Source: a virus (Duplodnaviria > Heunggongvirae > Uroviricota > Caudoviricetes). From it: 17,464 nt of DNA. Within the stretch, counting starts at the first letter, position 1. Every line of letters begins with the position of its first letter. Positions 1 to 17,464 of the stretch are shown here, in pieces. The notes beneath the pieces are model-generated. The model had not been told where the DNA came from. It searched no databases and saw only the letters and a list, made by a program, of their open reading frames with translations. A program made the translations under genes and the position numbers. The stretch is from IMG/VR virus record IMGVR_UViG_2778261165_000010; one strand, 5' to 3'.

Positions 1-19
1 GCTGGGAAGGCTGGGTCAT
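1..19 (-). CDS. 5' end of the next tail gene downstream of the tape measure (partial, runs off window)
   Basis: ATG at 19..17 on the minus strand preceded by GGAGGG; only 6 codons (MTQPSQ) are visible. The short Shine-Dalgarno spacing makes this uncertain. Confidence 0.3.
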
Positions 20-124
20 ATCCCTCCGGCAGAAGCAGAAAAAGCTTATTATGCTTCCATCAGAAACGATGATCTGGCAGCCTGAGTTCACAGATAAAAC
101 ACTCTCCAGGAAAACCGGGGCGGT

Positions 125-1963: not shown

Positions 1964-1986
1964 TTATTAAAACTCCTGACAACAAA

Positions 1987-2008
1987 AAACCCACCGCGAA
2001 GTGGGTTT
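1987..2008 (-). terminator. stem-loop with following T-tract in the GT-tape measure spacer (candidate intrinsic terminator or attenuator)
   Basis: On the minus strand: AAACCCAC-TTCGCG-GTGGGTTT (8-bp stem, 6-nt loop) followed by TTTGTT, then the AGGAG ribosome-binding site of the tape measure gene. Confidence 0.5.
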
Positions 2009-2128
2009 CAGGCGACATAATAGTAGATATAGCGATTACGAGGCCACGCAATGCTTTTCTCCAGGAGCATCATCGATTTAATTAAAGACACCATCACATC
2101 TCTGTAACAGAGTGTACGTAATTAACAA

Positions 2129-2449
2129 CTACACACACTGCTCCTGAAAATACTGGTCATCCAGTGCAAAGATCACTGCTTCAAATTCATCGCGCTCAAT
2201 CAATACCGGATGAGTGGCTAAATATTCATTTATCTCTGTCAGAGATAAAGGCAAAGGCACCCCAGCCATTCCAGCATAACGTCGGGCACGGGATATTACC
2301 GAATAGGCGTACAACAACTCCTTAAGCACCGGGTCTATTTCTGGTTCCGGTATCGGTGGCAACCTGAGTTTTTCTCGCTTCCATCTTGCCTTTTCCCCCC
2401 TTTCTCCCCCGAACTCCGATAACCACCGCTGGGCAGCTATGGCTTTTTT
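2129..2449 (-). CDS. tail assembly chaperone GT, -1 frameshift extension (T portion)
   Basis: The -1 frame relative to G is open from inside the 3' end of G through to the stop at 2129 (about 105 codons). The 77-aa track ORF 2129..2362 is the distal part of this frame. Arrangement matches lambda G/GT. Confidence 0.7.
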   Translation of the reverse strand, partial: KKAIAAQRWLSEFGGERGEKARWKREKLRLPPIPEPEIDPVLKELLYAYSVISRARRYAGMAGVPLPLSLTEINEYLATHPVLIERDEFEAVIFALDDQYFQEQCV

Positions 2450-2898
2450 ATCGTATCCTGCTTCTGCTGCTCTTTACCCTGGGCGATGCTGGCTGCTTCT
2501 GCAAGGATCTGCCAGTACAACTCTGGATTCTGCTTAAGCAGCGCGATCCCTCGTTCTGCCGTATATTCCAGTGCAACCTCAACACCATTAACCAGTTCAC
2601 CAACCCCTTTCCAGTCTTTCAGCAGATAACGAGCGGCATTATCAATGAGTAAATCATCAACAGAATCCACCTCGGAAACCTTTGAAATATCAAACTCCTT
2701 CGTTCCGACGTGCAAACTGGCATCCATTTTCTCAATGTGGCGACGGATTAATGCATTACGGGAGCGATACTGATCGTTATCGCTGCTTGCCACCAACAGT
2801 TTTAACCCGTCTACAGGTTTTAAGTCCTTCATTGGCGTAAACCAGCGTTCTCCACCAATGATAATTTTCTGATTAAGAATAAACATCCATAACCTCAT
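2437..2898 (-). CDS. tail assembly chaperone G
   Basis: ORF of about 150 aa between the major tail and tape measure genes, ending ..QDTIKKP* with the slippery site at its 3' end. An alternative start at 2886 (MFILNQK..) has a better-placed GAGG ribosome-binding site. Confidence 0.7.
   Translation of the reverse strand: MRLWMFILNQKIIIGGERWFTPMKDLKPVDGLKLLVASSDNDQYRSRNALIRRHIEKMDASLHVGTKEFDISKVSEVDSVDDLLIDNAARYLLKDWKGVGELVNGVEVALEYTAERGIALLKQNPELYWQILAEAASIAQGKEQQKQDTIKKP
2443..2449 (-). promoter_or_regulatory. programmed -1 ribosomal frameshift slippery heptamer A_AAA_AAG
   Basis: Plus strand 2443..2449 is ctttttt, so the minus strand reads A AAA AAG in the G reading frame (..ATA AAA AAG CCA TAG). 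This is 2 codons before the G stop, and the -1 frame is open downstream. Confidence 0.7.
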
Positions 2899-2946
2899 TC
2901 AATGCGTCCCCCTGTAGGGCAGTACCACAGGAGGATTAACGGAAAA

Positions 2947-3909
2947 TCAACTAATCGCCTCAGCACTGGCTTTTGCGATCACGGCAGCCGGGGAATTTTT
3001 TTTTCTGGTTATCGTAGGTGCTTCATCTGCTGCGGTAATGCTCAATTGAACCTGGATAATGTCGCTATTACCCCCATCAGGCCATTCACCTGACACCTGA
3101 ACCTTCGGGAAACTGAAAGTGTATGCCCCCTCTCCATTCGAAAGCGTGAAGCTGAACGGAACTGTTTCTCCAGTCAGTGTTTTACTCCAGATTTCCCACG
3201 CGGCTTTAGACCATGAAAGCGTCACCGTACCGGACGGTGTAAAAGTAGTCGGAATATTTGCTCCTGCATAAGGCGAGCCAGTCCCGATACAACGCTGTGT
3301 CTGGAGTTTGTTATCGAACTGAATATCAAAACTGTCGATACAAAAACCGTTACCTCCGGCAACACCATTCAGGCTTACTGCTGAAACCTCCTTAAACGAA
3401 TAACGTAGCTTTCCTGCACTATCCACAGGTTCGCCTTTGATAAAATTCGTATCATCGGCCTTTGATTCCCAGTCCAGTCCGGCAAAGGTTACGGTCGCTG
3501 TAATATCGCCGTCGTTAGGGATCTGCATTTTCCATGAGCCAACCTGCGCTCCTCTGACGACAGAGGCAATTCCGACATCGGACGCATAGGTCGCCAGAGA
3601 AAATGTTATTCGCTCATTCCCCATTGTCAGAGAATCGCCTGACCATTCCGCGCCGAAACAGGATGCAAGAAAATCATCATGTTGACCCCAGCGAAATTTG
3701 GTACCAACATCACCGCCGACATCCACAGTGCCAGGCGTCGCCCCCTGAGCCATCCGGGAGCCACCAATCTCATTATTTTCGCCTTTATTCTGGGTGGGTT
3801 TTACTCCCCAGCTTGTGCGTTTTAATAAACTCCAGTCACCACTTGCTGGCGTAGTGCCTGCAACCGTCTCCCGGATAAATGCCGAGATAACCTTTGCACC
3901 TGAACTCAC
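2947..3909 (-). CDS. major tail tube protein (320 aa)
   Basis: GTG start at 3909 with AGGAGG 6 nt upstream. Lies between the tail terminator and the G/GT chaperones. Gly/Thr/Ser-rich beta-type sequence with a C-terminal extension that may be an Ig-like domain. Confidence 0.7.
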   Translation of the reverse strand: MSSGAKVISAFIRETVAGTTPASGDWSLLKRTSWGVKPTQNKGENNEIGGSRMAQGATPGTVDVGGDVGTKFRWGQHDDFLASCFGAEWSGDSLTMGNERITFSLATYASDVGIASVVRGAQVGSWKMQIPNDGDITATVTFAGLDWESKADDTNFIKGEPVDSAGKLRYSFKEVSAVSLNGVAGGNGFCIDSFDIQFDNKLQTQRCIGTGSPYAGANIPTTFTPSGTVTLSWSKAAWEIWSKTLTGETVPFSFTLSNGEGAYTFSFPKVQVSGEWPDGGNSDIIQVQLSITAADEAPTITRKKNSPAAVIAKASAEAIS

Positions 3910-3935
3910 AGGAGCCTCCTATGTCATTAATTGCG

Positions 3936-4328
3936 CTAGAGCGCGCGATATGGAATTTGAAGATTAAGCTGGAACCAGCCATTCTTTTCGCCAACGGCTA
4001 TTGAGGAAACAGCCTGGTAACTGAGACGATCGTCATCCTGAAACTCAAACAGTTCCCGCAATTTATCGGCTGTCTCAGTAATGAGTTTTGAACCAGAACC
4101 TGCGGGGACAAATAACTGAATAATGATTATCCCCGTGCGATAAACAATCGGCCCCGCGCCAATTTCATTAACTCCAGCCTGCCCGGGAATATTACTTAAC
4201 CGCGCCCAGATTAACTTACCGGAAGGATCGAACGTTGGCGCGTTCGGATACAATACGTCTTTTCCATCAATAATCGTCTGTGCCGTCATTCTGGAAATAA
4301 CCGTATTTCTGATTTCAGTAAACGTCAT
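3936..4328 (-). CDS. tail terminator protein (lambda gpU-like by position)
   Basis: 130-aa ORF immediately upstream of the tail tube gene; its start overlaps the preceding gene by 4 nt. Called by synteny. Confidence 0.5.
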   Translation of the reverse strand: MTFTEIRNTVISRMTAQTIIDGKDVLYPNAPTFDPSGKLIWARLSNIPGQAGVNEIGAGPIVYRTGIIIIQLFVPAGSGSKLITETADKLRELFEFQDDDRLSYQAVSSIAVGEKNGWFQLNLQIPYRAL

Positions 4329-4705
4329 TTGTAAGCCTGTAAAACACCATGAAAAGCGTTGGCATACACGCCAGTTGGCGCTTGTTGTGAATGACCGTTT
4401 TCAAGAGCCTCTGCATAAGGAAGGTTATTCTGGATATAAATAACTCCGTAATTTGCAGCTTTCGAAATAACCCCGATCCCACGCTGAACAGCAATCGTAC
4501 CGTTCGGATCCACGTTATCAGATATACCAAAATCGGGATGCTGTAACGACACCAGGTTGTTATTTCTGAAACGTCCGGTATCAACCGGAGCAGCAATATC
4601 AATAGCAGTAAGAATCTGAATAGCGATGTAGCGAATCTTCAGCCCTACATCTTCCTCAATCATCCCGGCAAATATTGACGGTTCTATATCCCATGCCTTT
4701 GCCAT
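4325..4705 (-). CDS. HK97 gp10-like tail completion protein
   Basis: 126 aa containing a PVDTGRFRNN motif characteristic of the HK97 gp10 family; abuts the upstream gene. Confidence 0.65.
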   Translation of the reverse strand: MAKAWDIEPSIFAGMIEEDVGLKIRYIAIQILTAIDIAAPVDTGRFRNNNLVSLQHPDFGISDNVDPNGTIAVQRGIGVISKAANYGVIYIQNNLPYAEALENGHSQQAPTGVYANAFHGVLQAYK

Positions 4706-5089
4706 TTACGCTCTCCTTAACTGGATAGAGTAAACTGATGCGGAAGGATCTACACTTGCTGTAATTACCTCGTATCGTTGTAACTGCCTTGATACAGGAT
4801 CATAAATCTCAATAATATGGTCGACAGCTGGTTTATCCGTAACCTCGCATACCAGAGCGGTTAATTTAAGGTCACCATGCAAAATATTAATCCCATCAAT
4901 TCTGCCCAGCTTATAACGTGTCAACACGCCTCGCCCGGTATAGATTGCGGTGGATTCGCCGCCAGTTTCCGTCACAGGATCCCAGTGCCGGTGCGTAACG
5001 TAAGAACCAGAAAAATCACTCACGGCGTCCGCTAAATCCTCATCAAAAGCAGCGGCAACCTCTGACTGAATCTCTTCACGAAGCCCCAT
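4706..5089 (-). CDS. head closure / head-tail joining protein (putative)
   Basis: 127-aa ORF whose ATG (5089..5087) overlaps the upstream stop as TAATG. Called by synteny between adaptor and tail completion genes. Confidence 0.45.
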   Translation of the reverse strand: MGLREEIQSEVAAAFDEDLADAVSDFSGSYVTHRHWDPVTETGGESTAIYTGRGVLTRYKLGRIDGINILHGDLKLTALVCEVTDKPAVDHIIEIYDPVSRQLQRYEVITASVDPSASVYSIQLRRA

Positions 5090-5483
5090 TATCCCCCCCT
5101 CACAACCCTGACTTGTGAGCGACTAAGTCCGTACGGTTTCAGCAGTGCTATCGCAAGCTGTAAATCGGGTTCAAGCAATGCAGTGCTGTTTGCTGGCAAC
5201 TCAGAAAATGATTTCGATACACTGACCCCGTCAGCCGACACGGCTTTACTGATAACAACGCCAGAATCATTTTTCTGCTGAAACAACTTACCGAATGAGG
5301 CAATTCTGGCTGCATATGCTCCCGCAAGTTTTACCTCTTCCGGAATACGGGATGGGTTAATTTTCAGGTTGAGCCATTAAGCCAGGCATTAGCCATTAAA
5401 ACAGCTTTATTTTTAGCGTTCTCACTCGTCCAGGCGTTCCCAAACGCATTATCAACGTCATCACAGGTCACGTAAGTGATCAT
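5089..5483 (-). pseudogene. head-tail adaptor/connector gene interrupted by a frameshift
   Basis: ATG at 5483 with AGGAG 6 nt upstream opens a frame (MITYVTCDDVDNAFGNAWTSENAKNKAVLMANAWLNGST) that stops at 5364. A second frame, open from 5376 to 5089, continues (WLNLKINPSRIPEEVKLAGAYAARIASFGK...VRVVRGG). The two overlap by about 12 nt and differ by -1. No slippery heptamer is present. Confidence 0.55.
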
Positions 5484-5486
5484 GTG

Positions 5487-5663
5487 TTACTCCTGAGTTT
5501 TCCAGCCCATAGCCTTCCAGTTGTCAACTTCATCAGGATGAACATTAGCGATAGTTGGTGCGCCGGGAAACATCTGATAATCGGTCACCATAACCACTAA
5601 CTCAATTTGCGTTTTTTGTGCGGCTTCACGCTGTGCTCTTTGCTCTTTAGTTAATCCGGCCAT
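5487..5663 (-). CDS. small hypothetical protein (58 aa) downstream of the capsid gene
   Basis: ATG at 5663..5661; translation MAGLTKEQRAQREAAQKTQIELVVMVTDYQMFPGAPTIANVHPDEVDNWKAMGWKTQE. Its stop lies 3 nt before the next ATG. Below the length cut-off of the ORF track. The Shine-Dalgarno is G-rich only. Confidence 0.45.
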   Translation of the reverse strand: MAGLTKEQRAQREAAQKTQIELVVMVTDYQMFPGAPTIANVHPDEVDNWKAMGWKTQE

Positions 5664-5671
5664 ATGCCCCC

Positions 5672-5696
5672 CATTAAAAATGGGGCCGAAGCCCCG
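5672..5696 (-). terminator. intrinsic terminator after the major capsid gene
   Basis: On the minus strand: GGGGC-TTCG-GCCCC hairpin (plus 5682..5695) followed by ATTTTTAA, 10 nt after the capsid stop codon. Confidence 0.65.
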
Positions 5697-5705
5697 TTTG
5701 AATGT

Positions 5706-6845
5706 TTAACCAAGAATCAGACAACCATGTGCCGGCTTCACTGATGAAACACCCCATGCCAGTCCAACTTCATAGCGCACCTGGCGATACTGACGATACA
5801 GTGCAATCTGGAACGTAATCCCTGAAATCGGGTCCGTAACATTCATTACATCATCAGCATTATCGCCACCTTCCGGCATTGCCGGAGTACGGGATGCCAG
5901 CAGAAACGCGTTGCGATCAAACGCCATATTTGCCGTAAAGGCCCCAACAACTGTGATGGCAGTATCATCGGCCAGATCCTGACGCAGTCCGGGCGCTGCA
6001 AGAGTAATCAGATTGCTGGTCGCTGCTGCCACAACATACTGATTCGGATCACCAGCGAACGTAACAATCTGACCTGCAGAAATACTCCCCGAACCAGTAT
6101 CAATGGAAATAAGAACATCGCCTTCTTTTTTCTCTCCATTCACGAGATAACCAGTTGCAGCAACCTTTGGCGCTCGTTTCACACCTGCCGAACTGTGAAT
6201 ATTGAATCCCTCCAGACACCCCAACACGCCCTCACGCAGTAGCTGTTCAGTGCCGGATTCATTCACTTTAAACAATACAGACTGTTTTCCGCGCAAATTA
6301 GCAATGGCAGTGGAGCCAAGCACCATCTGCAGATCGGTTGTCGGTGCGCCGTTATCCTCCAGAACCTGACGAGCCAGAGCAGCATCAGAAAGATCATCTT
6401 TAACACCAAACGGCGTTGTCCCTGCGGTTCCCACGGCGCGGGAAGCACCGAAATACAACGCACCAAGATCAGCCTCAACCTCGTTTGCAAGGGCGCGAAA
6501 AGCCTGCTTGAACTGATCAGCCAGAATGGTGTTGTAAGTCCCTGAAGGGCCAAGAGCCAGTTGTTCTTCACCATTCCATTTAACCGGTGCCATTTTGGAT
6601 TTAGTAATTTTTACATCAACAGTGCCAATATTTTGATCACCGGTATTCGGAGCTGACGGCCCCGGTACGATATCTTCGGTTTTCGCCTCAGGCGCAACTG
6701 GCGCGGTTACCGTCTGATCTTTTGCTGCGGCGTCAGCTTTTGCGTTTTTTGCTACCGCAGGGATAAAACCTACCTGCTCACGGGATACAACATCCAGGGC
6801 GGTATAAATAGTCGGGATCAACCCGGTCAGGGTATTTCCAGCCAT
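5706..6845 (-). CDS. major capsid protein
   Basis: ATG at 6845 with AAGGAA ribosome-binding site (MAGNTLTGLIPTIYTAL..). About 380 aa, directly after the scaffold gene and followed by a strong terminator. The track ORF extends to 6938 from a non-ATG start. Confidence 0.8.
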   Translation of the reverse strand: MAGNTLTGLIPTIYTALDVVSREQVGFIPAVAKNAKADAAAKDQTVTAPVAPEAKTEDIVPGPSAPNTGDQNIGTVDVKITKSKMAPVKWNGEEQLALGPSGTYNTILADQFKQAFRALANEVEADLGALYFGASRAVGTAGTTPFGVKDDLSDAALARQVLEDNGAPTTDLQMVLGSTAIANLRGKQSVLFKVNESGTEQLLREGVLGCLEGFNIHSSAGVKRAPKVAATGYLVNGEKKEGDVLISIDTGSGSISAGQIVTFAGDPNQYVVAAATSNLITLAAPGLRQDLADDTAITVVGAFTANMAFDRNAFLLASRTPAMPEGGDNADDVMNVTDPISGITFQIALYRQYRQVRYEVGLAWGVSSVKPAHGCLILG

Positions 6846-6943
6846 AATTAAATATTCCTTAAAAATTTGCGTAATTGTGAATAGATGGAGTAATGAGCTA
6901 TCCAGCCCTGACACCAGCTCCCATCCGGAAGCTGACAAATGTG

Positions 6944-7708
6944 TTAATCAACGATTGTGATACCGTCTTTCAATGCGTTTTGCTTACCTGCAACATCCAG
7001 TGCATCAAAAGCAGAGCGTTTCATCGTTTTCTGACCAATATCATGCTGTGTCGGACGGGAGCCGCCGCCATTGTTGCCACTGGCTTTCAGGATGTAGTCT
7101 TTCTGAGGGTAATTTTCGACAAGGAACTCCAGCGCCTCATCAAACTGCGCCAGTTCGCCAGGCTTCGCGCGGGAATAAATTTTGTTGCCGGAAGCGTCAT
7201 AAGCAACGATCCTCCCTTCTTCCACTTTGAATGCCTGCCCGAAGCGGGCTTGTAATAAATCTGCCGGGATCGCAATTTTATCGGCAATATATTTTGAACC
7301 CGCAAAACTACCGCCAATCATAGAATCGTAAAGCTGCTTCTCCAGCATCTGAGAGCGTTGCTTTTCTTCATCTAATTGCTGCTGAAAATTTTTCGTAATT
7401 TCTGCCTTAACCTGGTCAACCTGTCCCGCATCGAGCAGCTTTTTCTGGTCGATTTTTGACAGCATTTCCAGTGCCTCGATCGCCTTCTTCGGGTCTTCGA
7501 TAGCGGCAAACTTAGCCAGTTTTTCCTCTGCAGCTTCTTTAGCCAGGCGATGATTTTTTGCCTCGCCATTAAGCTCTGTAATTTTTTTTGTCGCCAGCGG
7601 TGCATCGAAGCCAATTTCTTTACCATCGTCGTGCACATAAACTGGCAGGCCAGCAGTATCAATTTCTGCGTATTGTTTTCCGTTAATCTCGACCGTTTTC
7701 AGTTTCAT
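6944..7708 (-). CDS. scaffolding protein (putative)
   Basis: ATG at 7708 (MKLKTVEINGKQ..). Charged, coiled-coil-rich 254-aa protein between the head morphogenesis and capsid genes. The track start at 7780 would run through the terminator hairpin. Confidence 0.55.
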   Translation of the reverse strand: MKLKTVEINGKQYAEIDTAGLPVYVHDDGKEIGFDAPLATKKITELNGEAKNHRLAKEAAEEKLAKFAAIEDPKKAIEALEMLSKIDQKKLLDAGQVDQVKAEITKNFQQQLDEEKQRSQMLEKQLYDSMIGGSFAGSKYIADKIAIPADLLQARFGQAFKVEEGRIVAYDASGNKIYSRAKPGELAQFDEALEFLVENYPQKDYILKASGNNGGGSRPTQHDIGQKTMKRSAFDALDVAGKQNALKDGITIVD

Positions 7709-7765
7709 ATTAGTACCTGGTTTAAGTCTTCCGACAGTTACGCTGCTCACCATCCGGATCGCAGC

Positions 7766-7792
7766 AATAAAAAAGGCCACCCGAAGGTAGCC
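7766..7792 (-). terminator. intrinsic terminator between the Mu F-like and scaffold genes
   Basis: On the minus strand: GGCTACC-TTCG-GGTGGCC (7-bp stem with one G-U pair, TTCG loop) followed by TTTTTTTATTG. Confidence 0.65.
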
Positions 7793-7812
7793 TGTTGTAA
7801 TAAATGATTTAT

Positions 7813-8928
7813 TTAAATCCCTGCTTTTCTGAATACCTGTGCATCACGCTCACGGAGCTGCTTCAGCGTCAGCCATTCGCCTTTATCGGTGTAAAATTCA
7901 TCTGGCGACATACCACCATCCCGAATCAGCTTTGCTCGGGTTTCCCCCACAATCTGTTTTTGTCTGGTGTAAGGCTGACGCAAAAACCATTCCCTGTAGG
8001 TTGTATCTCCGGCCACCACGCCATCCATGCTGGCCCGCTCAGCCGGGGAAATATCGCGAACATCAATACCCAGTTCCTTCGCTGATTTCAGAATGAACGT
8101 TTCCGTTGAGCGGCAGCAGAAATGAATTTTTCCCGGCCCCTGCAAATAAGGCACGCTGTGACCTACAGGTTTATTATTCAGCGTATATTTGAGGCGATCC
8201 CTGATTCGACATTGTGGCGTAGTACGATTATCAAGCGTTGATAACCATTGCTTACCCTTAATCAAATCATTATTCGCGCTGGCAAAACTCTCACGGGCAG
8301 TAGCAGCAAGATGTCCAACCGCTGTTTTTGCAATGCTGGCCGCATTAGCCCGGCTCATCTGCAATGCACCATCCTGAAATCCCTTACTGACATGTCCCCG
8401 AATTTTTCTTGCGATCTGCTCATTGGTATCCCCCAGCAAAAAACCCTGACGCACTGTATTTGTTATGCGTCTGAGCCGATCCGCCTCAAGATCTGAGGCC
8501 CACTCACTGAGCAGTCGTCCCTGGAATGGTCGCGCCATTGCAGCGGCATAAAGTGCATCAGGAGAGATACCAACCAGAGGGTGAACATCAGCAACAAAAT
8601 CAGGTAGCATAGAATCAAACAGACTTAACTGATAACCAGCCTCATAAATTGCCAGCTCGTTCAGCTCTCCGGAGAGACTGGTAAACATGCTGTTAATAGC
8701 AGTGCGGTTAACCTTTCTGACGCTCGCCAGAAGTGACTCCAGGCGCTTAACGGTAAAATTACCTGGATCGAGGCTGTCCAGTGCTATCAGCAGGCGAGCA
8801 GTAAGTTCCGCATCGCTGTCATTCAGTATTTTCACCATTCTGGCAGCCACGCCAGTGCTATAGCGGGATATCCAGACTGCATGAGCAATTGATTCATCAC
8901 GCAGCCGTTCATTCACGGTTTGCATCAT
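7813..8928 (-). CDS. head morphogenesis protein, Mu F / SPP1 gp7-like
   Basis: 371 aa immediately after the portal gene, with an LDNRTTPQCR motif matching the LD.RT..C signature of this family. Confidence 0.75.
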   Translation of the reverse strand: MMQTVNERLRDESIAHAVWISRYSTGVAARMVKILNDSDAELTARLLIALDSLDPGNFTVKRLESLLASVRKVNRTAINSMFTSLSGELNELAIYEAGYQLSLFDSMLPDFVADVHPLVGISPDALYAAAMARPFQGRLLSEWASDLEADRLRRITNTVRQGFLLGDTNEQIARKIRGHVSKGFQDGALQMSRANAASIAKTAVGHLAATARESFASANNDLIKGKQWLSTLDNRTTPQCRIRDRLKYTLNNKPVGHSVPYLQGPGKIHFCCRSTETFILKSAKELGIDVRDISPAERASMDGVVAGDTTYREWFLRQPYTRQKQIVGETRAKLIRDGGMSPDEFYTDKGEWLTLKQLRERDAQVFRKAGI

Positions 8929-10315
8929 TGATTTCCATCAGCATTACACTCTGATTTTTTAATTCATCGATCACTTCCTCTGGACGGGAATCCTGATCGA
9001 TAAATTTCAACGCCTGCAACACCCGAACCGCATCAATCTGACGTATATCACCGCCCTGACGCAATGACTGAACAGCCAGCGCGGAGGATGAGTCAAACAC
9101 CTGGGCAGATACATCCAGTTCAGTGCGCACATCCACATTGCCACCGCAACTCTCTCCGATCCATTCCGCCATTATCTGGAGAATATTATCGAGGGCATCT
9201 TCGAGGGAGTTCGCCATTGTATAAAGCGGCGAGTTTTCCTGCATTCGCTCTTCATTAGTCTGATCAACAGATTTGGTGGATGTATTTTCAGCACGCAGAA
9301 GTTTAGCGCCGGCATGACGCATCTGATTTTCCAGCTTCTCAAGTGATGTTTCGCCAGATTCTATCGCTGCGCCACTATGTTCAACATATTCGAGGCCATT
9401 TTTTGTTCTGTCCTCAAAAATCGTAGCGGTGGATGCACCAACCGTCAGTTCTTCATTCCTGTCCAGCCCGTAGGCCACCAGCAATGGAACGCGGGTAACA
9501 TGAAGAATATTGTCCTGCTCGCTCTGGCTTTGCCAGTGCTTGATATTCAGCAAGCCAAGATTAAGCAATGGCGGTGTACCACGCATAAATCCTGTTTTCT
9601 TCGTGTACAGTGTTACCAGAGGAATATCATCACGGCTGGTATTCCATGACTCATGAAGCGTCCAGACAGATTCGCCATTAGTGCCTTCGCTACGTCGATA
9701 AATTTCAACTCGACGGGGCATAATATGGCGGATCTGCTCCACCTTCTTCTGCCCGAAATCATCACCATCAATAATGATGACCTCTTTTATACGCAAATCA
9801 GTGAGAACAACTTTCCCTTTTTCAACTTTCGATTTCCATCCAATAACCTGGCGTGGATTCAGCATCGTAACGTACGGACGACCACCGGTCGCGTTTTCAT
9901 CGGCTTTTGTACGAATCTCTTTCATATCCGTTCGTGGATAGTCCACCAGCGCATGTGCCACACCATACTGAAATGCGAGGCTGAAAAATTGCTGCGCCCA
10001 CACATCCAGTCGGCTCCCCTCCATGTCGATATTTTCTGCATATTCCCTGATTTTTGCCGGCGTTTCCTCACTCAATACTGTCGGCTCTGCAAATATGCGC
10101 CCAATATTTTGCTTGATGCTTTCTTCATACACAGGAAGTAGCGTAGCCACAGACAGGCGTTTTTTATAAGCGTCTTCATCTTCGTTAGGCCATTTTGGGA
10201 GATAATTTTCCCCCTGCCTGCGCATTTCAAGCGTACCGCCCATCAGTGCGTCGTTAATATCCCACGCCTCCAGCATATCGTTATAGTCGAGGTTGGGTGT
10301 TGATATATCAGCCAT
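8909..10315 (-). CDS. portal protein
   Basis: 468-aa ORF directly downstream of the terminase large subunit and overlapping the head morphogenesis gene; size and position are canonical. Confidence 0.8.
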   Translation of the reverse strand: MADISTPNLDYNDMLEAWDINDALMGGTLEMRRQGENYLPKWPNEDEDAYKKRLSVATLLPVYEESIKQNIGRIFAEPTVLSEETPAKIREYAENIDMEGSRLDVWAQQFFSLAFQYGVAHALVDYPRTDMKEIRTKADENATGGRPYVTMLNPRQVIGWKSKVEKGKVVLTDLRIKEVIIIDGDDFGQKKVEQIRHIMPRRVEIYRRSEGTNGESVWTLHESWNTSRDDIPLVTLYTKKTGFMRGTPPLLNLGLLNIKHWQSQSEQDNILHVTRVPLLVAYGLDRNEELTVGASTATIFEDRTKNGLEYVEHSGAAIESGETSLEKLENQMRHAGAKLLRAENTSTKSVDQTNEERMQENSPLYTMANSLEDALDNILQIMAEWIGESCGGNVDVRTELDVSAQVFDSSSALAVQSLRQGGDIRQIDAVRVLQALKFIDQDSRPEEVIDELKNQSVMLMEINDANRE

Positions 10316-10317
10316 AA

Positions 10318-11628
10318 TTAAATCCGAAGTGATGTGACTCTTCCGGTCGGTTTGACAATAGGGAATTGCTTAACGATGAAATAACCTCCGGCATCATTCG
10401 GGTGATCATTGCCAGATTTTTTATCAGGCTCCCCCTTCTCATCCCAGACCTGTTGCTCCAGAGATTCGGCATATAACGGGCAACGCTTCACATTAACTTT
10501 ATAGCGACGCTCACCATTGGCATTGCAGAACATTGCATTCATTGAGTTAACGCGATCTTTTACTGGCGGGTTCGAGCTGTTCACCACAACGTTAAAACCA
10601 GCCTGCTTAAGCTGGGCTATATCCGTCGTACTTGCGTTACTTGATTTTCTGGAATCCCCGGAAGCATCTGGATAAATATAAATTTCCCTCACTTTCCGGT
10701 AATCATTCCCATCATACAGCCAGAAGCGTTCTTTAATGATGCGGATCATATCCGGCGTATCGTAGGCATTGATGATTTCAGTTACCGCACATGGAAGCCC
10801 CAAACGCAGCACATGGACGATTCCCGCCATCTTTCCAACGTTAAAATCCATCCCAATATAAATCGGCTCCCCTGGCTGCTCCACTTCTTCGCAATTATTC
10901 AGTTTCCGGTCAAACTGATGGTAAACAGTACCACTTGTCAGGTTAGTAAACTGTCCTCGAAGATAGGCTTTAATCAGCTCTGGAGGGTATGATTCAAGAA
11001 GCGAAGGAATGTAATCTGCTGGCAGGTTCTTTTCATTATCGAAAGTAGATGCCTGCACCAGACCATACAGTGAGGCCAGCTCTGTTTTTTCACGCACGGC
11101 TTTAACAAACTGCTCGTAGACAAATTTGAATCCTTCCGGCGTGGTTGTAACGTCAATACCGTTGCGAAGTCCATCAATCTTATAACGCATACGTGCAATT
11201 ATCTTGCGCCACGCCGTTCTGGCTTTTTCCTTCGGCAAAATGTCCAGTTCATCCACCAACGCATTACCAATTTTGAAACCGACGATCGTTTGTGGCTTCT
11301 CCATCGATCTGCAGATAGTGGTTCCCCGATACTGGCGTCCGTAATAAAAGTGAACCTCTTTATTTCCCTCATTAATTTTTACGTTCAATCCCCAGTCAGC
11401 AGCAACTTCTTCCACTGTAGGGTAAAAAATATCGCGAATTTGGGGATACGTTGGCGCAAAATATCCCTGATTTATACCTGGATGCTCCCAAATCCCCTTG
11501 CATATGCCGCCACACCCAACCCATGTTTTGCCCGAGCCAAAACCAGCAATATAGGCTTTAAATTTATGGGGCATTGAAAGAAATCGCGCCTGAGGCACAT
11601 TAAGCGTCGGAGAGATCATCTTCATCAC
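10318..11628 (-). CDS. terminase large subunit
   Basis: N-terminal Walker A-like GFGSGKT; acidic nuclease-type motifs in the C-terminal half; lies between the small terminase and portal genes. Start may be one of the Met codons at 11628, 11625 or 11619. Confidence 0.9.
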   Translation of the reverse strand: MMKMISPTLNVPQARFLSMPHKFKAYIAGFGSGKTWVGCGGICKGIWEHPGINQGYFAPTYPQIRDIFYPTVEEVAADWGLNVKINEGNKEVHFYYGRQYRGTTICRSMEKPQTIVGFKIGNALVDELDILPKEKARTAWRKIIARMRYKIDGLRNGIDVTTTPEGFKFVYEQFVKAVREKTELASLYGLVQASTFDNEKNLPADYIPSLLESYPPELIKAYLRGQFTNLTSGTVYHQFDRKLNNCEEVEQPGEPIYIGMDFNVGKMAGIVHVLRLGLPCAVTEIINAYDTPDMIRIIKERFWLYDGNDYRKVREIYIYPDASGDSRKSSNASTTDIAQLKQAGFNVVVNSSNPPVKDRVNSMNAMFCNANGERRYKVNVKRCPLYAESLEQQVWDEKGEPDKKSGNDHPNDAGGYFIVKQFPIVKPTGRVTSLRI

Positions 11629-12694
11629 TCCTTACTCTGGCATCAACCACATTAATATTGATCGCCACAGGCTGGGGATGTTCATTATCTTCCACCGTTT
11701 CGATCTCTTTGCGCAGCTTCTGGTTTTCCATTCTGCGCCGTTCAATTTCCAGTTCCTGTAGCCGTTTATCTGCACATAAAGCCCCGCCAGCAGAAAACAA
11801 ACGCAACAATTCACGCCGGGCGGCAGCCTTATCCTCCAGCAGGATCTCAACGCCGAATTTTCCGAATTTTGCCCCTGCATATAATTGCCGCGCATCCCCA
11901 TCAAGCAGAGTGGTATCAGCCATATAAAGCTGTCCCGTTCCCTCACCGCAGCACTTCGGGCAGTCCGGATTGGGTATGGCGTTATCAACAAAGCCGAGGC
12001 CTCCATATTCCGGTTCGGGTTTGCCATCTCTGGAAGCCTGCGCCGCTGCCTTGTCGAATTCTGCTATATCGCGCCACTGGTAGAGATGATTCTCGCCCCA
12101 GCAATAACGGCAGTTAACACGGCGAAATTGTGCAAGCTGATTGGGGTCGGCCAGGACAATAGCCATCAACTGACTCACTAGTAAATCCAGGTCTGCGGTA
12201 TAGCGTTTCTGGTACTGATTGCGGAAGTAGCTGATAGCGCGAAAAACCCTGGCATTTCTAAGCATACGACTGGCGTTGCTGTTAGCTGTCGCACCTTGCC
12301 CCTCATAACCGGCTAGTCGGTACGCCTCTGTCGGCTTTTTACCCTGAGCAACAAGCATCGCAAACTTAGCCTGCTGGTCAGAAATGCCGAATTCATCGGG
12401 ACAGAACGAAAATTCCTCCGCGTCGCCCTCATTCAGGCCCGCATCGAATACTGGCTTTTTTTCCTGAGATTTTTCGTTCCGCTTTTGTGCAGTCTGCGCA
12501 GATTTTTTCTGCGCACTTTTTTGCGCAGTTTTGCACATTTCTGTCTGCGCATTTTTCGGAGTTTTTTTGATGTAACGACGGGCTGTTGCGTAATTCAGTC
12601 CCCTTGCTTCACACCATGCCACCGGAGATATACCGGAGCGGGTGTATTCAGCAATATACTCCTGCTGCAACGCCCCCCAGTCCGGTCTGCTCAT
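11600..12694 (-). CDS. terminase small subunit (HTH, Terminase_2-like core, C-terminal 4-Cys ribbon)
   Basis: ATG at 12694 with AGGA ribosome-binding site. N-terminal HTH (ISPVAWCEARGLNYATARRYIKK); low-complexity KTAQKSAQKKSAQTAQKR linker; core FAMLVAQGKKPTEAYRLAGYEGQGATANSNASRMLRNARV typical of small terminases; CRYC...CPKCC cysteine cluster. Confidence 0.8.
   Translation of the reverse strand: MSRPDWGALQQEYIAEYTRSGISPVAWCEARGLNYATARRYIKKTPKNAQTEMCKTAQKSAQKKSAQTAQKRNEKSQEKKPVFDAGLNEGDAEEFSFCPDEFGISDQQAKFAMLVAQGKKPTEAYRLAGYEGQGATANSNASRMLRNARVFRAISYFRNQYQKRYTADLDLLVSQLMAIVLADPNQLAQFRRVNCRYCWGENHLYQWRDIAEFDKAAAQASRDGKPEPEYGGLGFVDNAIPNPDCPKCCGEGTGQLYMADTTLLDGDARQLYAGAKFGKFGVEILLEDKAAARRELLRLFSAGGALCADKRLQELEIERRRMENQKLRKEIETVEDNEHPQPVAININVVDARVRSDEDDLSDA
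12495..12551 (-). repeat. array of five TGCGCA/TGCACA motifs separated by T-tracts inside the 5' part of the small terminase gene
   Basis: Plus-strand motifs at 12495, 12510, 12522, 12532 and 12546, each followed by T4-6 runs; spacing 10-15 bp. Confidence 0.6.
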
Positions 12695-12697
12695 CAG

Positions 12698-12949
12698 TTA
12701 GTCCTGATTTTTATCCACCCTGAGTAGTTCGCGCAGAGCAAAGGCATCCCCTTTTCTGGCAAGCTTAAACAATGCCGCTCGTAACTCGGCTTCACCTTTC
12801 GCTCTGCCCTTACGGATGGCCGCATAAAAATCTGTCATTGCTTCCCGATTTTCTTTCAGTCGGTTCAGATCAACATCCAGAACGTCAGCGATTTGTTGTG
12901 CAGTCATCCGGCACGCTGCCAGAGACTCGACTTTCGAATACGGAATCAT
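12698..12949 (-). CDS. small hypothetical protein (83 aa), possible HTH DNA-binding protein
   Basis: ATG at 12949 with GGGGGTGA upstream; stop 3 nt before the small terminase ATG. Contains MTAQQIADVLDVDLNRL, which looks HTH-like. Overlaps the 3' end of the upstream gene by 65 nt. Confidence 0.5.
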   Translation of the reverse strand: MIPYSKVESLAACRMTAQQIADVLDVDLNRLKENREAMTDFYAAIRKGRAKGEAELRAALFKLARKGDAFALRELLRVDKNQD

Positions 12950-13817
12950 TTGTCACCCCCATTGATATGCAGGGTGTCTTCTTCCTGTATTTTTCGTGAA
13001 GGATTTTTACTGCAGCGTTGTTCCAGGTGACCTGATGGTGAATGCGTTTATGGCTGGCACCCATCAGTGAGATTTTTACGCACGACGGCGCATACATGAC
13101 GGAGTAAAAACTTTTAACGTAGGTTCCGGAATCCAGATACAGCTCGGTCATTCCGCCGCTGTTTTTCTGCGTCTGTTTCTGCCCTAACTGGACAGCACCG
13201 ATCGTCATAAACAATTCACCACAGCGACCGAGATTCGTGTACGTATTCACATCCTCGTTAATGCGCCCCATGAATGAGAACGGTCGATCAACCGAACAGA
13301 TAAAGCTGTTCATTGCCTTGCGTTTCACCCACGAAGCATGGCCGCCATTGTCACCAAGAAAATCCCCGCCCTGCGACATAGCGATGGAAAGAGCAGGTAT
13401 TGATTCGTAGTACGCCAGCATTTCAGAAAGGATCGCATCCAGTTTCCTTATCGGAAAATAGGCCTGGTCATAGTTGCGATCCACCCGAAACTGGAACTCG
13501 TGATAATCATCATCGAGCTGAATGAAGTATTTACACCCGACCAGTTTTGCCAGGTCGAAACAGGCATTACGGGCGTAAAAAATTGAGCGGCGGTCACAGA
13601 AATTATCGGCTTCGTCAAAACGACTGGCGATATCGGCTTTGGAAAACACCAGCACCTGTTCACCAAATTCAGCCATGTACTGATTTCGTGTCTTATCTTC
13701 ATCATCAACAACGATAAAAATTTTCCCGGTATAGCCAGCACGACGCAACGTCCGGTAAGTCAGAACTTTGTCCGGTCGCCCGTGAGTCAGAATAAAGGCG
13801 CAAAAATCATCACGCAT
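12885..13817 (-). CDS. hypothetical protein with GT-A-like glycosyltransferase features
   Basis: ATG at 13817 directly after a GGAGGAGGAGG ribosome-binding site, overlapping the upstream stop by 8 nt. N-terminus CAFILTHGRPDKVLTYRTLRRAGYTGKIFIVVDDED resembles the GT-A beta1-alpha1-beta2 'VVDDxx' pattern. A DxD-like IQLDDDYHE lies about 90 residues further on. No transmembrane segments. Confidence 0.45.
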   Translation of the reverse strand: MRDDFCAFILTHGRPDKVLTYRTLRRAGYTGKIFIVVDDEDKTRNQYMAEFGEQVLVFSKADIASRFDEADNFCDRRSIFYARNACFDLAKLVGCKYFIQLDDDYHEFQFRVDRNYDQAYFPIRKLDAILSEMLAYYESIPALSIAMSQGGDFLGDNGGHASWVKRKAMNSFICSVDRPFSFMGRINEDVNTYTNLGRCGELFMTIGAVQLGQKQTQKNSGGMTELYLDSGTYVKSFYSVMYAPSCVKISLMGASHKRIHHQVTWNNAAVKILHEKYRKKTPCISMGVTNDSVFESRVSGSVPDDCTTNR

Positions 13818-14601
13818 ATTCCTCCTCCTCACCACCATGCATGATCTCCACCATGCGCTGCGTCATCCGGACAAATCCATTTTCAATAGCCTGCTGATAA
13901 TCAATGATCACCAGCGCCGACTCCTCGAAAAAACACTGAATTTCAGAGGGGGCGTGAGCGTAATAGTCCGCAATTCTGCTGAAATTAAACACCGTGTGAC
14001 GTTCTGCCGCACACAGGAGGAATTTCTCAATATCAGGCTCAAGGGACGCCGAACGTATCCGGCTGATCAGCTCCTGAGTTTTCGTATCGTCGTACAGTTC
14101 ACTGATATCCGGTTTACCGCCCGACGGCTCATAAACAGGCGTATCAATTTTCGTCGTATACGGCTCCTCCTCATTTCCTGTACCGGGCAAAACATCCGTC
14201 AACAGTTCATCAATTTCTGTCGGGATGAAGCCTGTCAGGGAGACATCAAAATCAGCATTGATTAGGTCCGACAGCTCCATCCGCAACAGATCTTCATCCC
14301 AGCCAGCATTCATCGGCAGGCGATTATCTGCCAGGCGGTACGCCTTTTTCTGCTCATCCGTCAGGCCAGACAGAACAATGACCGGAACAGAATCCATTTT
14401 GAGCATTTCAGCCGCCATAACACGACCGTGACCCGCAATAATTTCGCCCTTTTCGTCAATCAGCACCGGATTAGTCCAGCCGAATTGCTTAATACTTTCT
14501 ACCAGTTGTGCCACCTGCTCAGGGCTGTGCGTCCTGGCGTTGTGCGCATACGGTGACAATTCTTGTAATGGGCGATAGACTATCTTTAATTTCTCGCTCA
14601 T
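13810..14601 (-). CDS. ParB N-terminal domain (ParB/Srx-like) protein
   Basis: ATG at 14601 with AAGG upstream. N-terminal KLKIVYRPLQELSPYAHNARTHSPEQVAQLVESIKQFGWTNPVLIDEKGEIIAGHGRVMAA matches the ParB/sulfiredoxin fold, with GHGR in place of the GERR arginine patch. C-terminal 170 aa unassigned; acidic tail GGEEEEYA. Confidence 0.7.
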   Translation of the reverse strand: MSEKLKIVYRPLQELSPYAHNARTHSPEQVAQLVESIKQFGWTNPVLIDEKGEIIAGHGRVMAAEMLKMDSVPVIVLSGLTDEQKKAYRLADNRLPMNAGWDEDLLRMELSDLINADFDVSLTGFIPTEIDELLTDVLPGTGNEEEPYTTKIDTPVYEPSGGKPDISELYDDTKTQELISRIRSASLEPDIEKFLLCAAERHTVFNFSRIADYYAHAPSEIQCFFEESALVIIDYQQAIENGFVRMTQRMVEIMHGGEEEEYA

Positions 14602-14617
14602 ACAGCCTTGCTTTATG

Positions 14618-14652
14618 AATAAAACGCACCCCAGCAGCCAGTGCTACTGGGG
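14618..14652 (-). terminator. intrinsic terminator downstream of trkG
   Basis: On the minus strand: CCCCAGTAG-CACTGG-CTGCTGGGG hairpin (plus 14629..14652) followed by TGCGTTTTATTC, about 85 nt after the trkG stop and 17 nt before the ParB-like start. Confidence 0.6.
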
Positions 14653-14738
14653 ACGGAGGGGTTGCTGGTAAAGTTAGGTATTGGATCAATGAGTGAGTCA
14701 ACATAATATTAAACTCACAATTATAAATCAGCCATATA

Positions 14739-16214
14739 TTAGGAGCGCCAAAAAAAACCTGAAAACAATATAATAACAGGATAAATTTCAAGGCGACCAA
14801 GAATCATAGCTATGCACATTAAACATTTTGCAATGTCATTAAGCACTCCGAATGACGATGCAGTAGCCCCAAAACCTAATCCCATATTATTAATACATGC
14901 AGCCACTGTTGCAAATGATGTAAGAAAATCATATCCCATACCATTTAACACCAGTATAAAAAACACCGTGAAGAGAGTATAAAGAAAAAAGAAACTCCAT
15001 ACAGACCTCATTACACGATCTGTAACTATCTTCCCTCCTACATTTACACTCAACAACGCTCTGGGATGAGAAAGCTGATTTATCTCGTGTTTGCTTTGTT
15101 TGAAAAGTATAAGAAATCGAAGTGACTTAATTCCACCACAAGTTGAACCTATACATCCCCCAAAGAAACTTGACAACAGCAAAAACACTATCGTGTGCGT
15201 GGGCCAACTTGCATAATCCTGCGTAGCTAAACCATTATCAGTGAGCATGGAGCTGGCAAGAAAAAACGAATGAATAAAACTTCCATGCAAGTCATACATA
15301 CCTATATGCCAGACCTGGAAAGAGGTAACAATGATCACCCCTAAGGCTATTAACAGAAAGAAACGAAGTTCAATATCTCTGATTAAAGGTTTTATCGTTT
15401 TCCTGCTAATAACAATATACCAAAGAGTGAAGTTGAAAGCCGATAGCAGGGAAAAAGAACCAGCCACCAGCTCAACCAAATAGTTATTAAAATATCCGAT
15501 ACTCTCGCTATGAGTTGAGAAACCACCAAGCGAAACTGTGGAAATCCCGTGACAAATAGCATCAAACAAAGGCATTCCTGCAAGTCTATAACAGACAATA
15601 CAAGCAATACCTAATAAAGAATAAGTTATCCACAGTGTCCGTGACGTATCGGCCAGGCGGGGAGTGAGTTTGTCATCCTTAAATGGCCCCGGCATTTCTG
15701 ACTGATAAAGCTTTGCACCACCAATACCCAATAATGGCAATACAGCAACCGCCAGAACAATAACTCCTAAACCACCTATAAAATTTAACTGTGACCGATA
15801 GTACAAATATGCCCGAGGTAATGAACTAACATCATCAATTACAGTTGCTCCTGTTGTTGTTATTCCAGAAACCCCTTCAAACAGAGCATCAATGAACGTT
15901 AAATTAAGTTCTGAGTCAATCCATAAAGGGAATGCACTAATAACAGAAAACAAAATCCAAAACATTACAATTATAATAAACCCATCACGGGTACGTAATT
16001 GAATGCCAGATTTCTTAGTTGTATACCACGCTCCGCCACCAATGCAAAAAAATATAACGAAAGTTATAAAGAAAACGAACAGGCTTTTTTCTTTATAAAA
16101 CAATGCTACAACCATTGGTGGCAACATTGAAAGACTATAGAGCCAAACCAGGAACCCACACATATGAGTAACAACTCTTACATGAGATGTATTCATATCT
16201 AAATATTCTTTCAA
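14739..16214 (-). CDS. trkG: TrkH/TrkG-family potassium uptake membrane protein
   Basis: Polytopic membrane protein with repeated Gly-rich selectivity-filter-like segments (GVSGITTTGATV, IGGLGVIVLAV, STVSLGGFST, GSTCGGIK). From memory it matches E. coli TrkG, which is prophage-borne in K-12. Markedly AT-rich compared with its neighbours. The true start may be Met7 at 16196 (MNTSHVRVV..). Confidence 0.88.
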   Translation of the reverse strand: MKEYLDMNTSHVRVVTHMCGFLVWLYSLSMLPPMVVALFYKEKSLFVFFITFVIFFCIGGGAWYTTKKSGIQLRTRDGFIIIVMFWILFSVISAFPLWIDSELNLTFIDALFEGVSGITTTGATVIDDVSSLPRAYLYYRSQLNFIGGLGVIVLAVAVLPLLGIGGAKLYQSEMPGPFKDDKLTPRLADTSRTLWITYSLLGIACIVCYRLAGMPLFDAICHGISTVSLGGFSTHSESIGYFNNYLVELVAGSFSLLSAFNFTLWYIVISRKTIKPLIRDIELRFFLLIALGVIIVTSFQVWHIGMYDLHGSFIHSFFLASSMLTDNGLATQDYASWPTHTIVFLLLSSFFGGCIGSTCGGIKSLRFLILFKQSKHEINQLSHPRALLSVNVGGKIVTDRVMRSVWSFFFLYTLFTVFFILVLNGMGYDFLTSFATVAACINNMGLGFGATASSFGVLNDIAKCLMCIAMILGRLEIYPVIILFSGFFWRS

Positions 16215-16333
16215 TTATAACCACCTTGCTGCAATATTATGATTATACTGTATAAAATTTAACTCCTCTTAGATCTTACTTCACTGTTCCTTATGAAACA
16301 ATCATCAAAATGAATCATATTGTAGTTAAGATT

Positions 16334-16798
16334 TTACTTTAAACACTGCTCGGTTATGTATTGCTGAGCACCTTCAAGTTGGGCCTGCATCATTACCAGT
16401 CGTTCCCGGAGGGTGAAATAATCCCGTTCAGCGGTGTCTGCCAGTCGGGGGGAGGCTGCATTATCCACGCCGGAGGCGGTGGTGGCTTCACGCACTGACT
16501 GACAGACTGCTTTGATGTGCAACCGACGACGACCAACGGCAACATCATCACGCAGAACATCATTTTCAGCTTTCGCATCAGCTAACTCCTTCGTGTATTT
16601 TGCATCGAGCGCAGCAACATCACGCTGACGCATCTGCATGTCAGTAATTGCCGCGTTCGCCAGCTTCAGTTCTCTGGCATTTTTGTCGCGCTGTTCTTTG
16701 TAGGCGATGGCGTTATCACGGTAATGATTAACACCCCATGACAGGCAGACGACGATGCAGATAACCAGAGCGGAGATAATCGCGGTTACTCTGTTCAT
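16334..16798 (-). CDS. Rz i-spanin
   Basis: ATG at 16798 overlaps the endolysin stop as ATGA. N-terminal transmembrane segment ([18 protein letters not shown]) followed by a coiled-coil periplasmic domain. The track ORF starts 4 codons upstream. Confidence 0.85.
16393..16578 (-). CDS. Rz1 o-spanin lipoprotein, embedded in Rz in the +1 frame
   Basis: [20 protein letters not shown]: signal peptide with lipobox and Cys, then a proline-rich mature region ([18 protein letters not shown]). Entirely inside the Rz gene in a different frame. Confidence 0.85.
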
Positions 16799-17292
16799 TG
16801 CTGACCCCACAAACAGATTTCACGCTCAATCTCACGACGAGTCATGAGACCTTTCCATTGCTTACCGCCAGCATATGTCCAGCGACGTAGCTGATCACAT
16901 GCGCCTTTGATATCGCCCTGGTTTATTTTGCGAAGAAGCGTCGATGTTCTGAAATTGCCAGCACCCACGTTGTAAACGAATGAGTAAAGAGCGCCGCGCG
17001 TTGTTTCCGGTATATCGACTTTGATGTACGGGTTAATTTGTCTGGCGACCGTGGCAAGGTCTTTATTCAGGAGGGCTTTGCATTCTGCTTTGGTATACGT
17101 TTTACCGAGCATGATGTCTTTTCCTGTATGCCCGTGACATACAGTCCATACACCAACAATATCTTTGTATGGTATGTAGCTGACACCTTCCAGACCATCG
17201 TTACCACTTGGGCCAGTGATTAACACTGATGCTATAGCAATTGCTCCGCCACCAATAGCAGCAGCAACGACTTTTCGTAATGATGGAGGCAT
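16795..17292 (-). CDS. SAR endolysin (phage 21 R-type lysozyme)
   Basis: 165 aa with an N-terminal Gly/Ala-rich signal-anchor-release segment ([20 protein letters not shown]). From memory it is near-identical to E. coli cryptic-prophage lysozyme RrrD. ATG at 17292 with GAGAGGTGA ribosome-binding site. Confidence 0.9.
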
Positions 17293-17337
17293 TATTCACC
17301 TCTCGCAGCCTTGCGCTTATCTTCTTTAATCTTGAAA
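17292..17337 (-). pseudogene. 3' remnant of a pinholin (S21-like) gene truncated by IS2
   Basis: The frame ending at TAA (17294..17292, overlapping the endolysin ATG as TAATG) encodes ..[14 protein letters not shown], which from memory resembles the C-terminus of phage 21 pinholin. The frame is broken at 17337/17338 by the IS2 terminus. Confidence 0.6.
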
Positions 17338-17464
17338 TGGATTTGCCCCTATATTTCCAGACATCTGTTATCACTTAACCCATTACAAGCCCGCTGCCGC
17401 AGATATTCCCGTGGCGAGCGATAACCCAGCGCACTATGCGGATGCCATTCGTTATAATGCTCGA
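17338..17464 (-). mobile_element. IS2 insertion sequence, terminal 127 bp (remainder outside window)
   Basis: Plus strand from 17338 reads TGGATTTGCCCCTATATTTCCAGACATCTGTTATCACTTAACCC, which I recognise from memory as the IS2 right terminal inverted repeat. It is followed by the 3' end of the transposase reading frame. Confidence 0.75.
17349..17464 (-). CDS. insD: IS2 transposase OrfB, C-terminal fragment (partial)
   Basis: The minus-strand frame translates to ..[37 protein letters not shown], the conserved C-terminal tail of IS3-family DDE (rve) transposases. The stop is at 17351..17349. Confidence 0.7.

Follow-up and report, generated by a model that had tools for sequence, protein, structure and literature searches.

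An IS2 insertion splits the pinholin-type holin gene directly upstream of an intact SAR endolysin gene in a Rac-type Escherichia coli prophage

The DNA analyzed here, referred to as the window, is a prophage stretch of 17,464 nucleotides. All genes in its open reading frame list are located on the minus strand. The right-hand end of the window is occupied by a lysis cassette and by one end of an insertion sequence (IS), and a second IS end is present at the opposite side. The relevant features are as follows.

1-124: end of an IS3-family element, adjoining a tape-measure gene (125-1963, minus strand) that is truncated to 612 aa, as seen by comparison with relatives
16334..16810, minus strand: Rz-type i-spanin gene, intact (PF03245, E=3e-52)
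16393-16578, minus strand: embedded Rz1/rzoD o-spanin gene, intact (rzoD is annotated at 6094-6279 of L001, the corresponding locus of strain Z1323CEC0004)
16795..17292, minus strand: SAR endolysin gene of the R21/RrrD type, 165 aa, intact (PF00959, E=1.3e-45; matches to 4zpu and 3hde)
17297..17304, minus strand: Shine-Dalgarno sequence of the endolysin, GAGAGGTG, read from the sequence and kept downstream of IS2
17292..17336, minus strand: 3' remnant of an S21/EssD-type class II holin gene, from F58 (duplicated) to E71 and the TAA stop, its translation being the C-terminus of the intact 71-aa holin
17333..17337, minus strand: one of the two 5-bp repeats made by target-site duplication (TTTCA in minus-strand reading); TTTCA is present at both IS2 ends in L001 and as a single copy at the empty site in locus L002
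17338..17464, minus strand: right end of IS2, with the tip of the right inverted repeat (IRR) at 17338, 100% identical to the RefSeq-annotated IS2 in NZ_CP148483.1

The identity of the element at 17338-17464 was established from its 100% match to a copy that is labeled 'IS3-like element IS2 family transposase' by RefSeq. The stretch includes the 3'-terminal part of orfB (insD) and its stop codon at 17349-17351, as well as the characteristic terminal inverted repeat of IS2. On the minus strand the last 127 nt of the element start at 17464 and end in ...GGGTTAAGTGATAACAGATGTCTGGAAATATAGGGGCAAATCCA at 17338, the right tip reading ...GGGGCAAATCCA; the plus strand from 17338 reads TGGATTTGCCCCTATATTTCCAGACATCTGTTATCACTTAACCC, the reverse complement of this tip. 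IS2 runs off the end of the window, and its transposase genes point in the same direction as the late genes of the phage. An IS2 right end had been reported at this place in an earlier note on the same DNA. Its presence was confirmed, and the sequence places the tip at 17338 and not at 17339.

Direct reading of the sequence also confirmed that IS2 adjoins a frame coding for the last 14 residues of a holin, and that this frame overlaps the endolysin start. The 14-residue translation of 17336-17292 (minus strand) reproduces exactly the C-terminal end of the 71-aa EssD/S21-type holin that is intact in the related genomes described below, and the holin TAA (17294-17292) shares its last A with the endolysin ATG (17292-17290) in the sequence TAATG. 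A coincidental match can be dismissed, because positions 1-17338 of the window are 99.5-100% identical at the DNA level to many genomes whose holin is uninterrupted. The earlier note had the holin interrupted about 15 codons from its end. The interruption near the end was upheld, while the count was not: 13 complete codons are severed, and codon 59 is cut after its first base. The remnant codes for 14 residues although 13 codons were severed, because F58 lies within the duplicated 5 bp.

The endolysin belongs to the GH24 phage lysozyme family (PF00959). It has two mismatches in 165 aa to the crystallized K-12 RrrD (4zpu, E=2.5e-111) and matches the 165-aa lysozyme chain 3hde (E=1e-110), which we take to be phage 21 R. 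Residues 1-27 are rich in Gly and Ala, with one difference from the RrrD chain (V8 for A8), and this N-terminus is predicted to be a signal-arrest-release (SAR) domain. The GAGG core of the Shine-Dalgarno sequence is situated 6 nt upstream of the ATG at 17292. Further downstream the window carries an intact, AT-rich trkG gene (14739-16214, minus strand) for a TrkH-family K+ transporter (PF02386, E=5e-145), which is cargo between the spanin and terminase genes, as in K-12 Rac.

To find the other end of IS2, a 1165-bp query (window 16300-17464) was compared with complete genomes, and a 101-bp query across the junction was compared with 5426 complete genomes. The longer query gave a one-piece match at 100% identity in two complete genomes, those of Z1323CEC0004 and Z1323CEC0002 (chicken isolates, South Korea), and it detected the cassette without the IS in ~900 genomes. 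The exact junction was found in one piece in the same two genomes only (2 of 5426). The whole window is 100% identical to both of these sister genomes apart from an extra IS50R copy, which splits their otherwise identical trkG. Because trkG is intact in the window and split in the sisters, the window derives from a very close relative without IS50R.

In Z1323CEC0004, IS2 is exactly 1331 bp long, orfA and orfB are open, and the programmed frameshift is annotated. The left end of the element, TAGACTGGCCCC, directly follows ...ACAAACCTTTATTTCA; in both sister genomes this end comes after holin codon 58. TTTCA flanks IS2 on both sides in this genome and occurs once at the empty site in L002. The empty site, ...aacctttatttcaagattaaag..., belongs to one continuous 71-codon holin that is uninterrupted in hundreds of genomes, including sibling isolates; in SLK172 and many others it reads ...aacctttatttcaagattaaagaag... 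within a single 216-bp ORF whose product begins with MKSMDK. By this comparison, that ORF ends, in frame, with the 45 nt found to the left of the IS tip. In both sister genomes the holin 5' part (residues 1-58) lies beyond the far IS2 end.

The other IS2 end, the 5-bp duplication and the holin 5' portion, which the earlier note had suggested looking for upstream, were thus all present in the two sister genomes. The two outcomes that it had named as counter-evidence were looked for and did not occur: the holin 5' portion is not missing, and IS2 is not intergenic next to a separate intact holin, the empty site being one holin ORF. IS2 is located within the pinholin-type holin gene, directly upstream of the SAR endolysin gene and in the orientation of the late genes, as proposed. 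We infer the left IS2 junction of the window itself from these near-identical genomes, the window ending 127 bp into IS2.

The intact 71-aa holin matches Pfam PF04971 ('Bacteriophage P21 holin S') over residues 5-67 (E=2.1e-35). Its features, read from a sister genome outside the window, are the dual start in MKSMDK, a segment of low hydropathy rich in Gly, Ala and Ser (residues ~9-28), and a strongly hydrophobic segment (residues ~36-58). The characteristic features of the S21 68 pinholin include a short, highly charged C-terminal domain (PMC9671378). In the insertion allele, the ORF upstream of IS2 has 74 codons and consists of holin residues 1-58 followed by 16 residues, IDWPPESPDNQYHLNK, encoded by the left inverted repeat (IRL) of IS2. 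The dual start MKSM, the weakly hydrophobic TMD1 and the full TMD2 are present in both the intact holin and the chimera, and the hydropathy of TMD2 is kept. The tail after F58 has 13 aa and a net charge of +3 in the intact holin, and 16 aa and a net charge of -2 in the chimera, in which the PF04971 match is confined to residues 5-58 (E=3.7e-29). The net-basic, charged C-terminal domain of S21-type holins is lacking in the insertion allele, its tail being detached and replaced by the IS2-encoded residues, and on its sequence this holin gene is classified as a disrupted and not an intact member of PF04971.

RefSeq gives the chimeric ORF (WP_096935520.1, 74 aa, L001 8320-8544) the usual label 'class II holin family protein', a small annotation trap by which its truncation by the IS is concealed. 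In a collection of ~15 billion proteins, the chimeric protein was present on 4 contigs, compared with at least 1000 for the intact holin. As the junction and the chimera are rare and the neighboring lysis genes are intact, the insertion appears to be a recent, clone-restricted event. For lambda S, Blasi et al. reportedly found in 1999 that basic tail residues set holin timing and that function needs at least one of them. Extrapolating from this rule for the lambda S C-terminal domain, triggering by the chimera would probably be mistimed or lost. An altered lysis timing is plausible for a protein in which both TMDs are kept and the charged tail is swapped.

The gene order around the cassette was derived from relatives, in which all genes from the YbcO-like gene to the tail genes are co-oriented. 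A YbcO-like gene (DUF1364) and a DUF1133 gene are followed by ~1.2 kb of unannotated DNA, a tolA' pseudogene, a TolA-C cargo gene and a hairpin terminator, and then by holin, endolysin, Rz/Rz1, trkG, ynaK', terminase, portal, capsid and tail genes. No second holin ORF was found between the TolA-C cargo gene and the endolysin in the sister and relative loci. The DUF1133 protein, encoded ~2.4 kb upstream, has a borderline match to PF06530 (Phage_antitermQ; 26.1 bits against a cutoff of 26), and consensus scans predicted promoter-like and terminator-like sites downstream of this Q-like gene. The TolA C-terminal-domain gene (PF06519, E=1e-14) and the tolA-like pseudogene (L001 8796-9602) are possible cargo between the Q-like gene and the holin. 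In Stx phages, stx sits between Q and holin. No tRNA genes, as are present there in Stx phages, were found between the Q-like gene and the holin.

By gene order, IS2 separates the endolysin and all genes downstream of it from the presumed Q/late-promoter region, in agreement with the earlier note; the promoter itself is guessed from the consensus scans. No intrinsic terminator was predicted within IS2 on the late-gene strand, including the right end of the element. The promoter scan did not find a sigma-70-like promoter spanning the IS2/endolysin junction, and a hybrid outward promoter at the IS2 right end was ruled out on this basis. The polarity caused by IS2 depends on Rho (PMC3737525), and polarity is suppressed by Q proteins (PMC12360218). 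Of the polar effect on late transcription that had been predicted, extra silencing is still to be expected in the lysogen, but a strong effect is doubtful in view of the Rho-dependence and Q, the lack of a terminator and the endolysin's own Shine-Dalgarno sequence. Because the late operon is presumably transcribed by a Q-modified, polarity-resistant RNA polymerase, we expect weak polarity on induction; its main effect would be added silencing in the uninduced lysogen.

The prophage is of the Rac type. Its flanks are the ompN/uspF side and the ydaS/ydaT side, and it carries trkG, ynaK, ydaY and tfaR. In relatives a 1077-aa tape measure is followed by M and L; SLK172, whose holin is uninterrupted, has an intact tape measure together with M and L. 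The clone of the window lacks the 3' part of the tape-measure gene, M and L, and in it the IS3-family element adjoins a K-like C40 peptidase gene. RefSeq marks an 'AL1L pseudoknot' frameshift site in the IS3-family copy at window 1-124. The junction between the tape-measure gene and the IS3-family element was found only in the same two genomes as the IS2-split holin, and either event may have come first. The BLAST cover of window 1-124 in IS2-free siblings came from IS copies elsewhere and does not place the tail junction before the IS2 event.

The prophage region of Z1323CEC0004 contains 16 annotated IS copies (IS903B, five ISVsa5, five IS3-family elements, IS50R, IS2, IS100, IS1A and ISNCY), several of which interrupt cargo genes. 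Having lost M, L and the 3' end of the tape-measure gene, the prophage is unable to make tails, whatever its lysis phenotype. The earlier note had described it as partly domesticated through the IS2 insertion. With the tail-gene deletion and 16 IS copies, the holin being one of many sites hit in an IS-expanded lineage, 'decaying' is the better description, and the defectiveness of the prophage does not rest on IS2, since the IS3-family event removed tail genes in the same clone. Separately, a gene in the head-tail region (window 5089-5483, minus strand), named 'protein singed' in RefSeq, is annotated as frameshifted in every relative examined, seemingly intact prophages included; an old pseudogene, a programmed frameshift and an annotation artefact are all conceivable.

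Very probably, the allele goes back to a single, recent and simple transposition in one avian E. coli clone, in which IS2 entered holin codon 58/59 of a lambdoid prophage of the Rac type. It would be one step in a neutral process of decay driven by IS elements. IS2 (1331 bp, IS3 family) generated the 5-bp TTTCA duplication and split the holin gene into an upstream 74-codon chimera and a downstream orphan tail of 14 codons, leaving the endolysin, Rz and Rz1 intact and the endolysin Shine-Dalgarno sequence in place. With the basic cytoplasmic tail lost (net charge from +3 to -2), the chimera would probably trigger pinholes at the wrong time or not at all. Read-through of IS2 by Q-modified RNA polymerase is probable on induction, so that expression of the endolysin and late genes would continue; in the uninduced state IS2 would add a Rho-dependent barrier. 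SAR endolysins act slowly without a holin by stochastic membrane exit, and R21 alone leads to slow growth inhibition or lysis (PMC12642591; PMC7312051). As SAR endolysins leak without a holin, a holin defect is not equivalent to an absence of lysis, and lysis would be delayed, gradual and desynchronized rather than abolished. That clone is also without the tape-measure 3' end, M and L, which were removed through the IS3-family element. The recurrence of IS2-family insertions in other lineages leaves room for selection or target preference over pure neutrality.

This recurrence across E. coli lineages came up in the genome searches for the cassette. The copies mapped were full-length (1331 bp) IS2 elements or IS2 variants of 95-97% identity, each with its own 5-bp duplication. 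Among the ~900 complete genomes with the cassette, they amount to at least 12 independent insertions of the IS2 family, of both orientations, in the cassette or within ~620 bp of it. The mapped insertions are given below with their position relative to the holin ATG, duplication, orientation relative to the late genes, and strain.

-619, CTTTT, same orientation: 13C1079T
-139, AATAC, opposite orientation: ET490 (mapped), and ET670 with the same BLAST span
-86, CATAT, same orientation: MS 119-7
-83, ATATA, same orientation: 13KWH46
-55, GTCTG, opposite orientation: EC21Z-048
-53, CTGAA, same orientation: 2017.17.03CC
-40, CATAA, same orientation: DSM 103246 and CP53, two different IS variants at one site
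holin codon ~7, AAGTT, same orientation: PK8566, in which the IS2 end donates a new ATG
+171, TTTCA, same orientation: the allele of the window
+284, in the endolysin SAR domain, GTTAA, opposite orientation: 2018-01-1CC

Two insertions in other lineages lie in coding sequence, at the holin 5' end (PK8566) and in the endolysin SAR domain (2018-01-1CC). Six insertions are concentrated between -86 and -36 (~50 bp) of the holin ATG, just downstream of the terminator-like hairpin. This cluster region (L001 ~8579-8670 and its counterparts in loci L004-L006 and L011-L017) belongs to the ~250 bp upstream of the holin, just outside the window. By a rough estimate, with a median of 2 IS2-end matches per genome, ~14 genome occurrences fall into ~0.9 kb across ~900 genomes, compared with a uniform expectation of ~0.3. 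By this rough estimate the region is over-hit, yet it is naive to expect uniform insertion where prophage DNA is dispensable. A target motif resembling the IS2 inverted repeats was considered behind the cluster and rejected: the best local alignment of the 160-bp region with the repeats had a score of 17, which was reached in 125 of 500 shuffles and in 67 of 220 control windows and is not significant.

In PK8566 (L004 2503-2730), an in-frame ATG comes from the right end of IS2 (MSGNIGANP...), and RefSeq calls a 75-aa holin. This protein does not have the native dual-start motif and is possibly an antiholin-less allele.

That IS2-family elements truly prefer the lysis cassette of Rac-type prophages and their lambdoid relatives as a target, and especially the ~50 bp upstream of the S21-type holin, is a tentative proposition, and we consider it rather unlikely. 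If it were true, IS2 insertion would be a recurrent and possibly selected route by which prophage lysis is blunted in E. coli, and the allele of the window would be one instance of it. No relevant publication came up when the literature was searched for IS2 in combination with holin and prophage.

An adaptive domestication, in which an IS2 knock-down of the lysis cassette was selected because killing on induction became less efficient while cargo such as trkG was kept, would account for the at least 12 independent insertions near the cassette, far above the uniform genome-wide density of IS2 in our rough calculation. However, the allele of the window is confined to one clone, which also has IS copies in unrelated genes (trkG in the sisters, flxA, BCCT and DUF2254 genes). 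Most of the recurrent insertions spare the holin, endolysin and spanins, and a regional target preference of IS2 combined with tolerance in prophage DNA accounts for the clustering without selection. We therefore regard this explanation as improbable.

It is far less probable that IS2 is intergenic, or that the junction is an assembly or recombination artefact and a separate intact holin exists elsewhere. IS copies are classic misassembly sites and the left junction lies outside the window, which stops within IS2, but two independently assembled complete genomes contain both junctions with a perfect 5-bp duplication and an IS2 of exactly 1331 bp, and the empty site is one 216-bp holin ORF with no second holin ORF between TolA-C and the endolysin. 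Very improbable, too, is a gain of function in which an outward promoter or start codon of IS2 drives constitutive expression of endolysin, spanins and trkG independently of the late promoter: the PK8566 allele implies that the IS2 right end can donate translation signals, and transposase transcripts could read out through an end without a predicted intrinsic terminator, but the IS2-derived ATG of the window opens a frame of 12 codons that differs from the frame of the holin remnant, the promoter scan is negative across the junction, and constitutive expression of a SAR endolysin would be toxic.

A single IS2 transposition within neutral decay is therefore the reading that we retain. IS2, the S21 pinholin, SAR endolysins and IS-driven prophage decay are all textbook subjects, and this is an ordinary IS insertion. 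The allele is already public, annotated piecemeal in two complete genomes. It could serve as a natural tail-swap mutant for probing the role of the basic C-terminal tail of pinholins, and the clustering of IS2 around the cassette is a small population-genomic question of target preference versus selection against lysis.

Among known systems, the cassette is most directly comparable to S21-R21-Rz/Rz1 of phage 21 and essD-rrrD-rzpD/rzoD of the K-12 prophage DLP12. The gene order and the overlapping stop and start codons are the same, the intact holin has the MKSM dual start, two TMDs, the basic tail and the PF04971 domain, the endolysin is nearly identical to RrrD, and RefSeq names the cassette genes essD, rrrD, rzpD and rzoD. 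Unlike in these systems, the holin gene in the clone of the window is split after codon 58 into a 74-aa chimera without the basic tail and an orphan 14-codon end. Classical IS2 makes a 5-bp target duplication and is 1331 bp long, as is the case here. The insertion also resembles the classical polar IS2 insertions (galEP3/gal3 in the gal operon) in that a full-length IS2 is placed between a promoter and downstream genes, which does not imply a match to the classical 'orientation I'. It differs from galEP3 in that the interrupted unit is a lambdoid late operon, presumably transcribed by a Q-modified, polarity-resistant RNA polymerase (PMC12360218).

With K-12 Rac (ydaS/ydaT ... rzpR-trkG-ynaK-ydaY ... 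stfR-tfaR) the prophage shares its chromosomal neighborhood and trkG, ynaK, ydaY and tfaR. In contrast to K-12 Rac, from which the holin, endolysin, terminase, portal, capsid and tail-tube genes have presumably been lost, the prophage of the window retains these genes, and its decay proceeds by IS insertion rather than by large deletions. IS-mediated inactivation of prophage genes is well established in E. coli, for example by IS629 in O157 prophages, and accumulated IS copies make inducible prophages cryptic. Compared with such inactivation in general, the present case differs only in the element, IS2, and in the target, holin codon 58/59.
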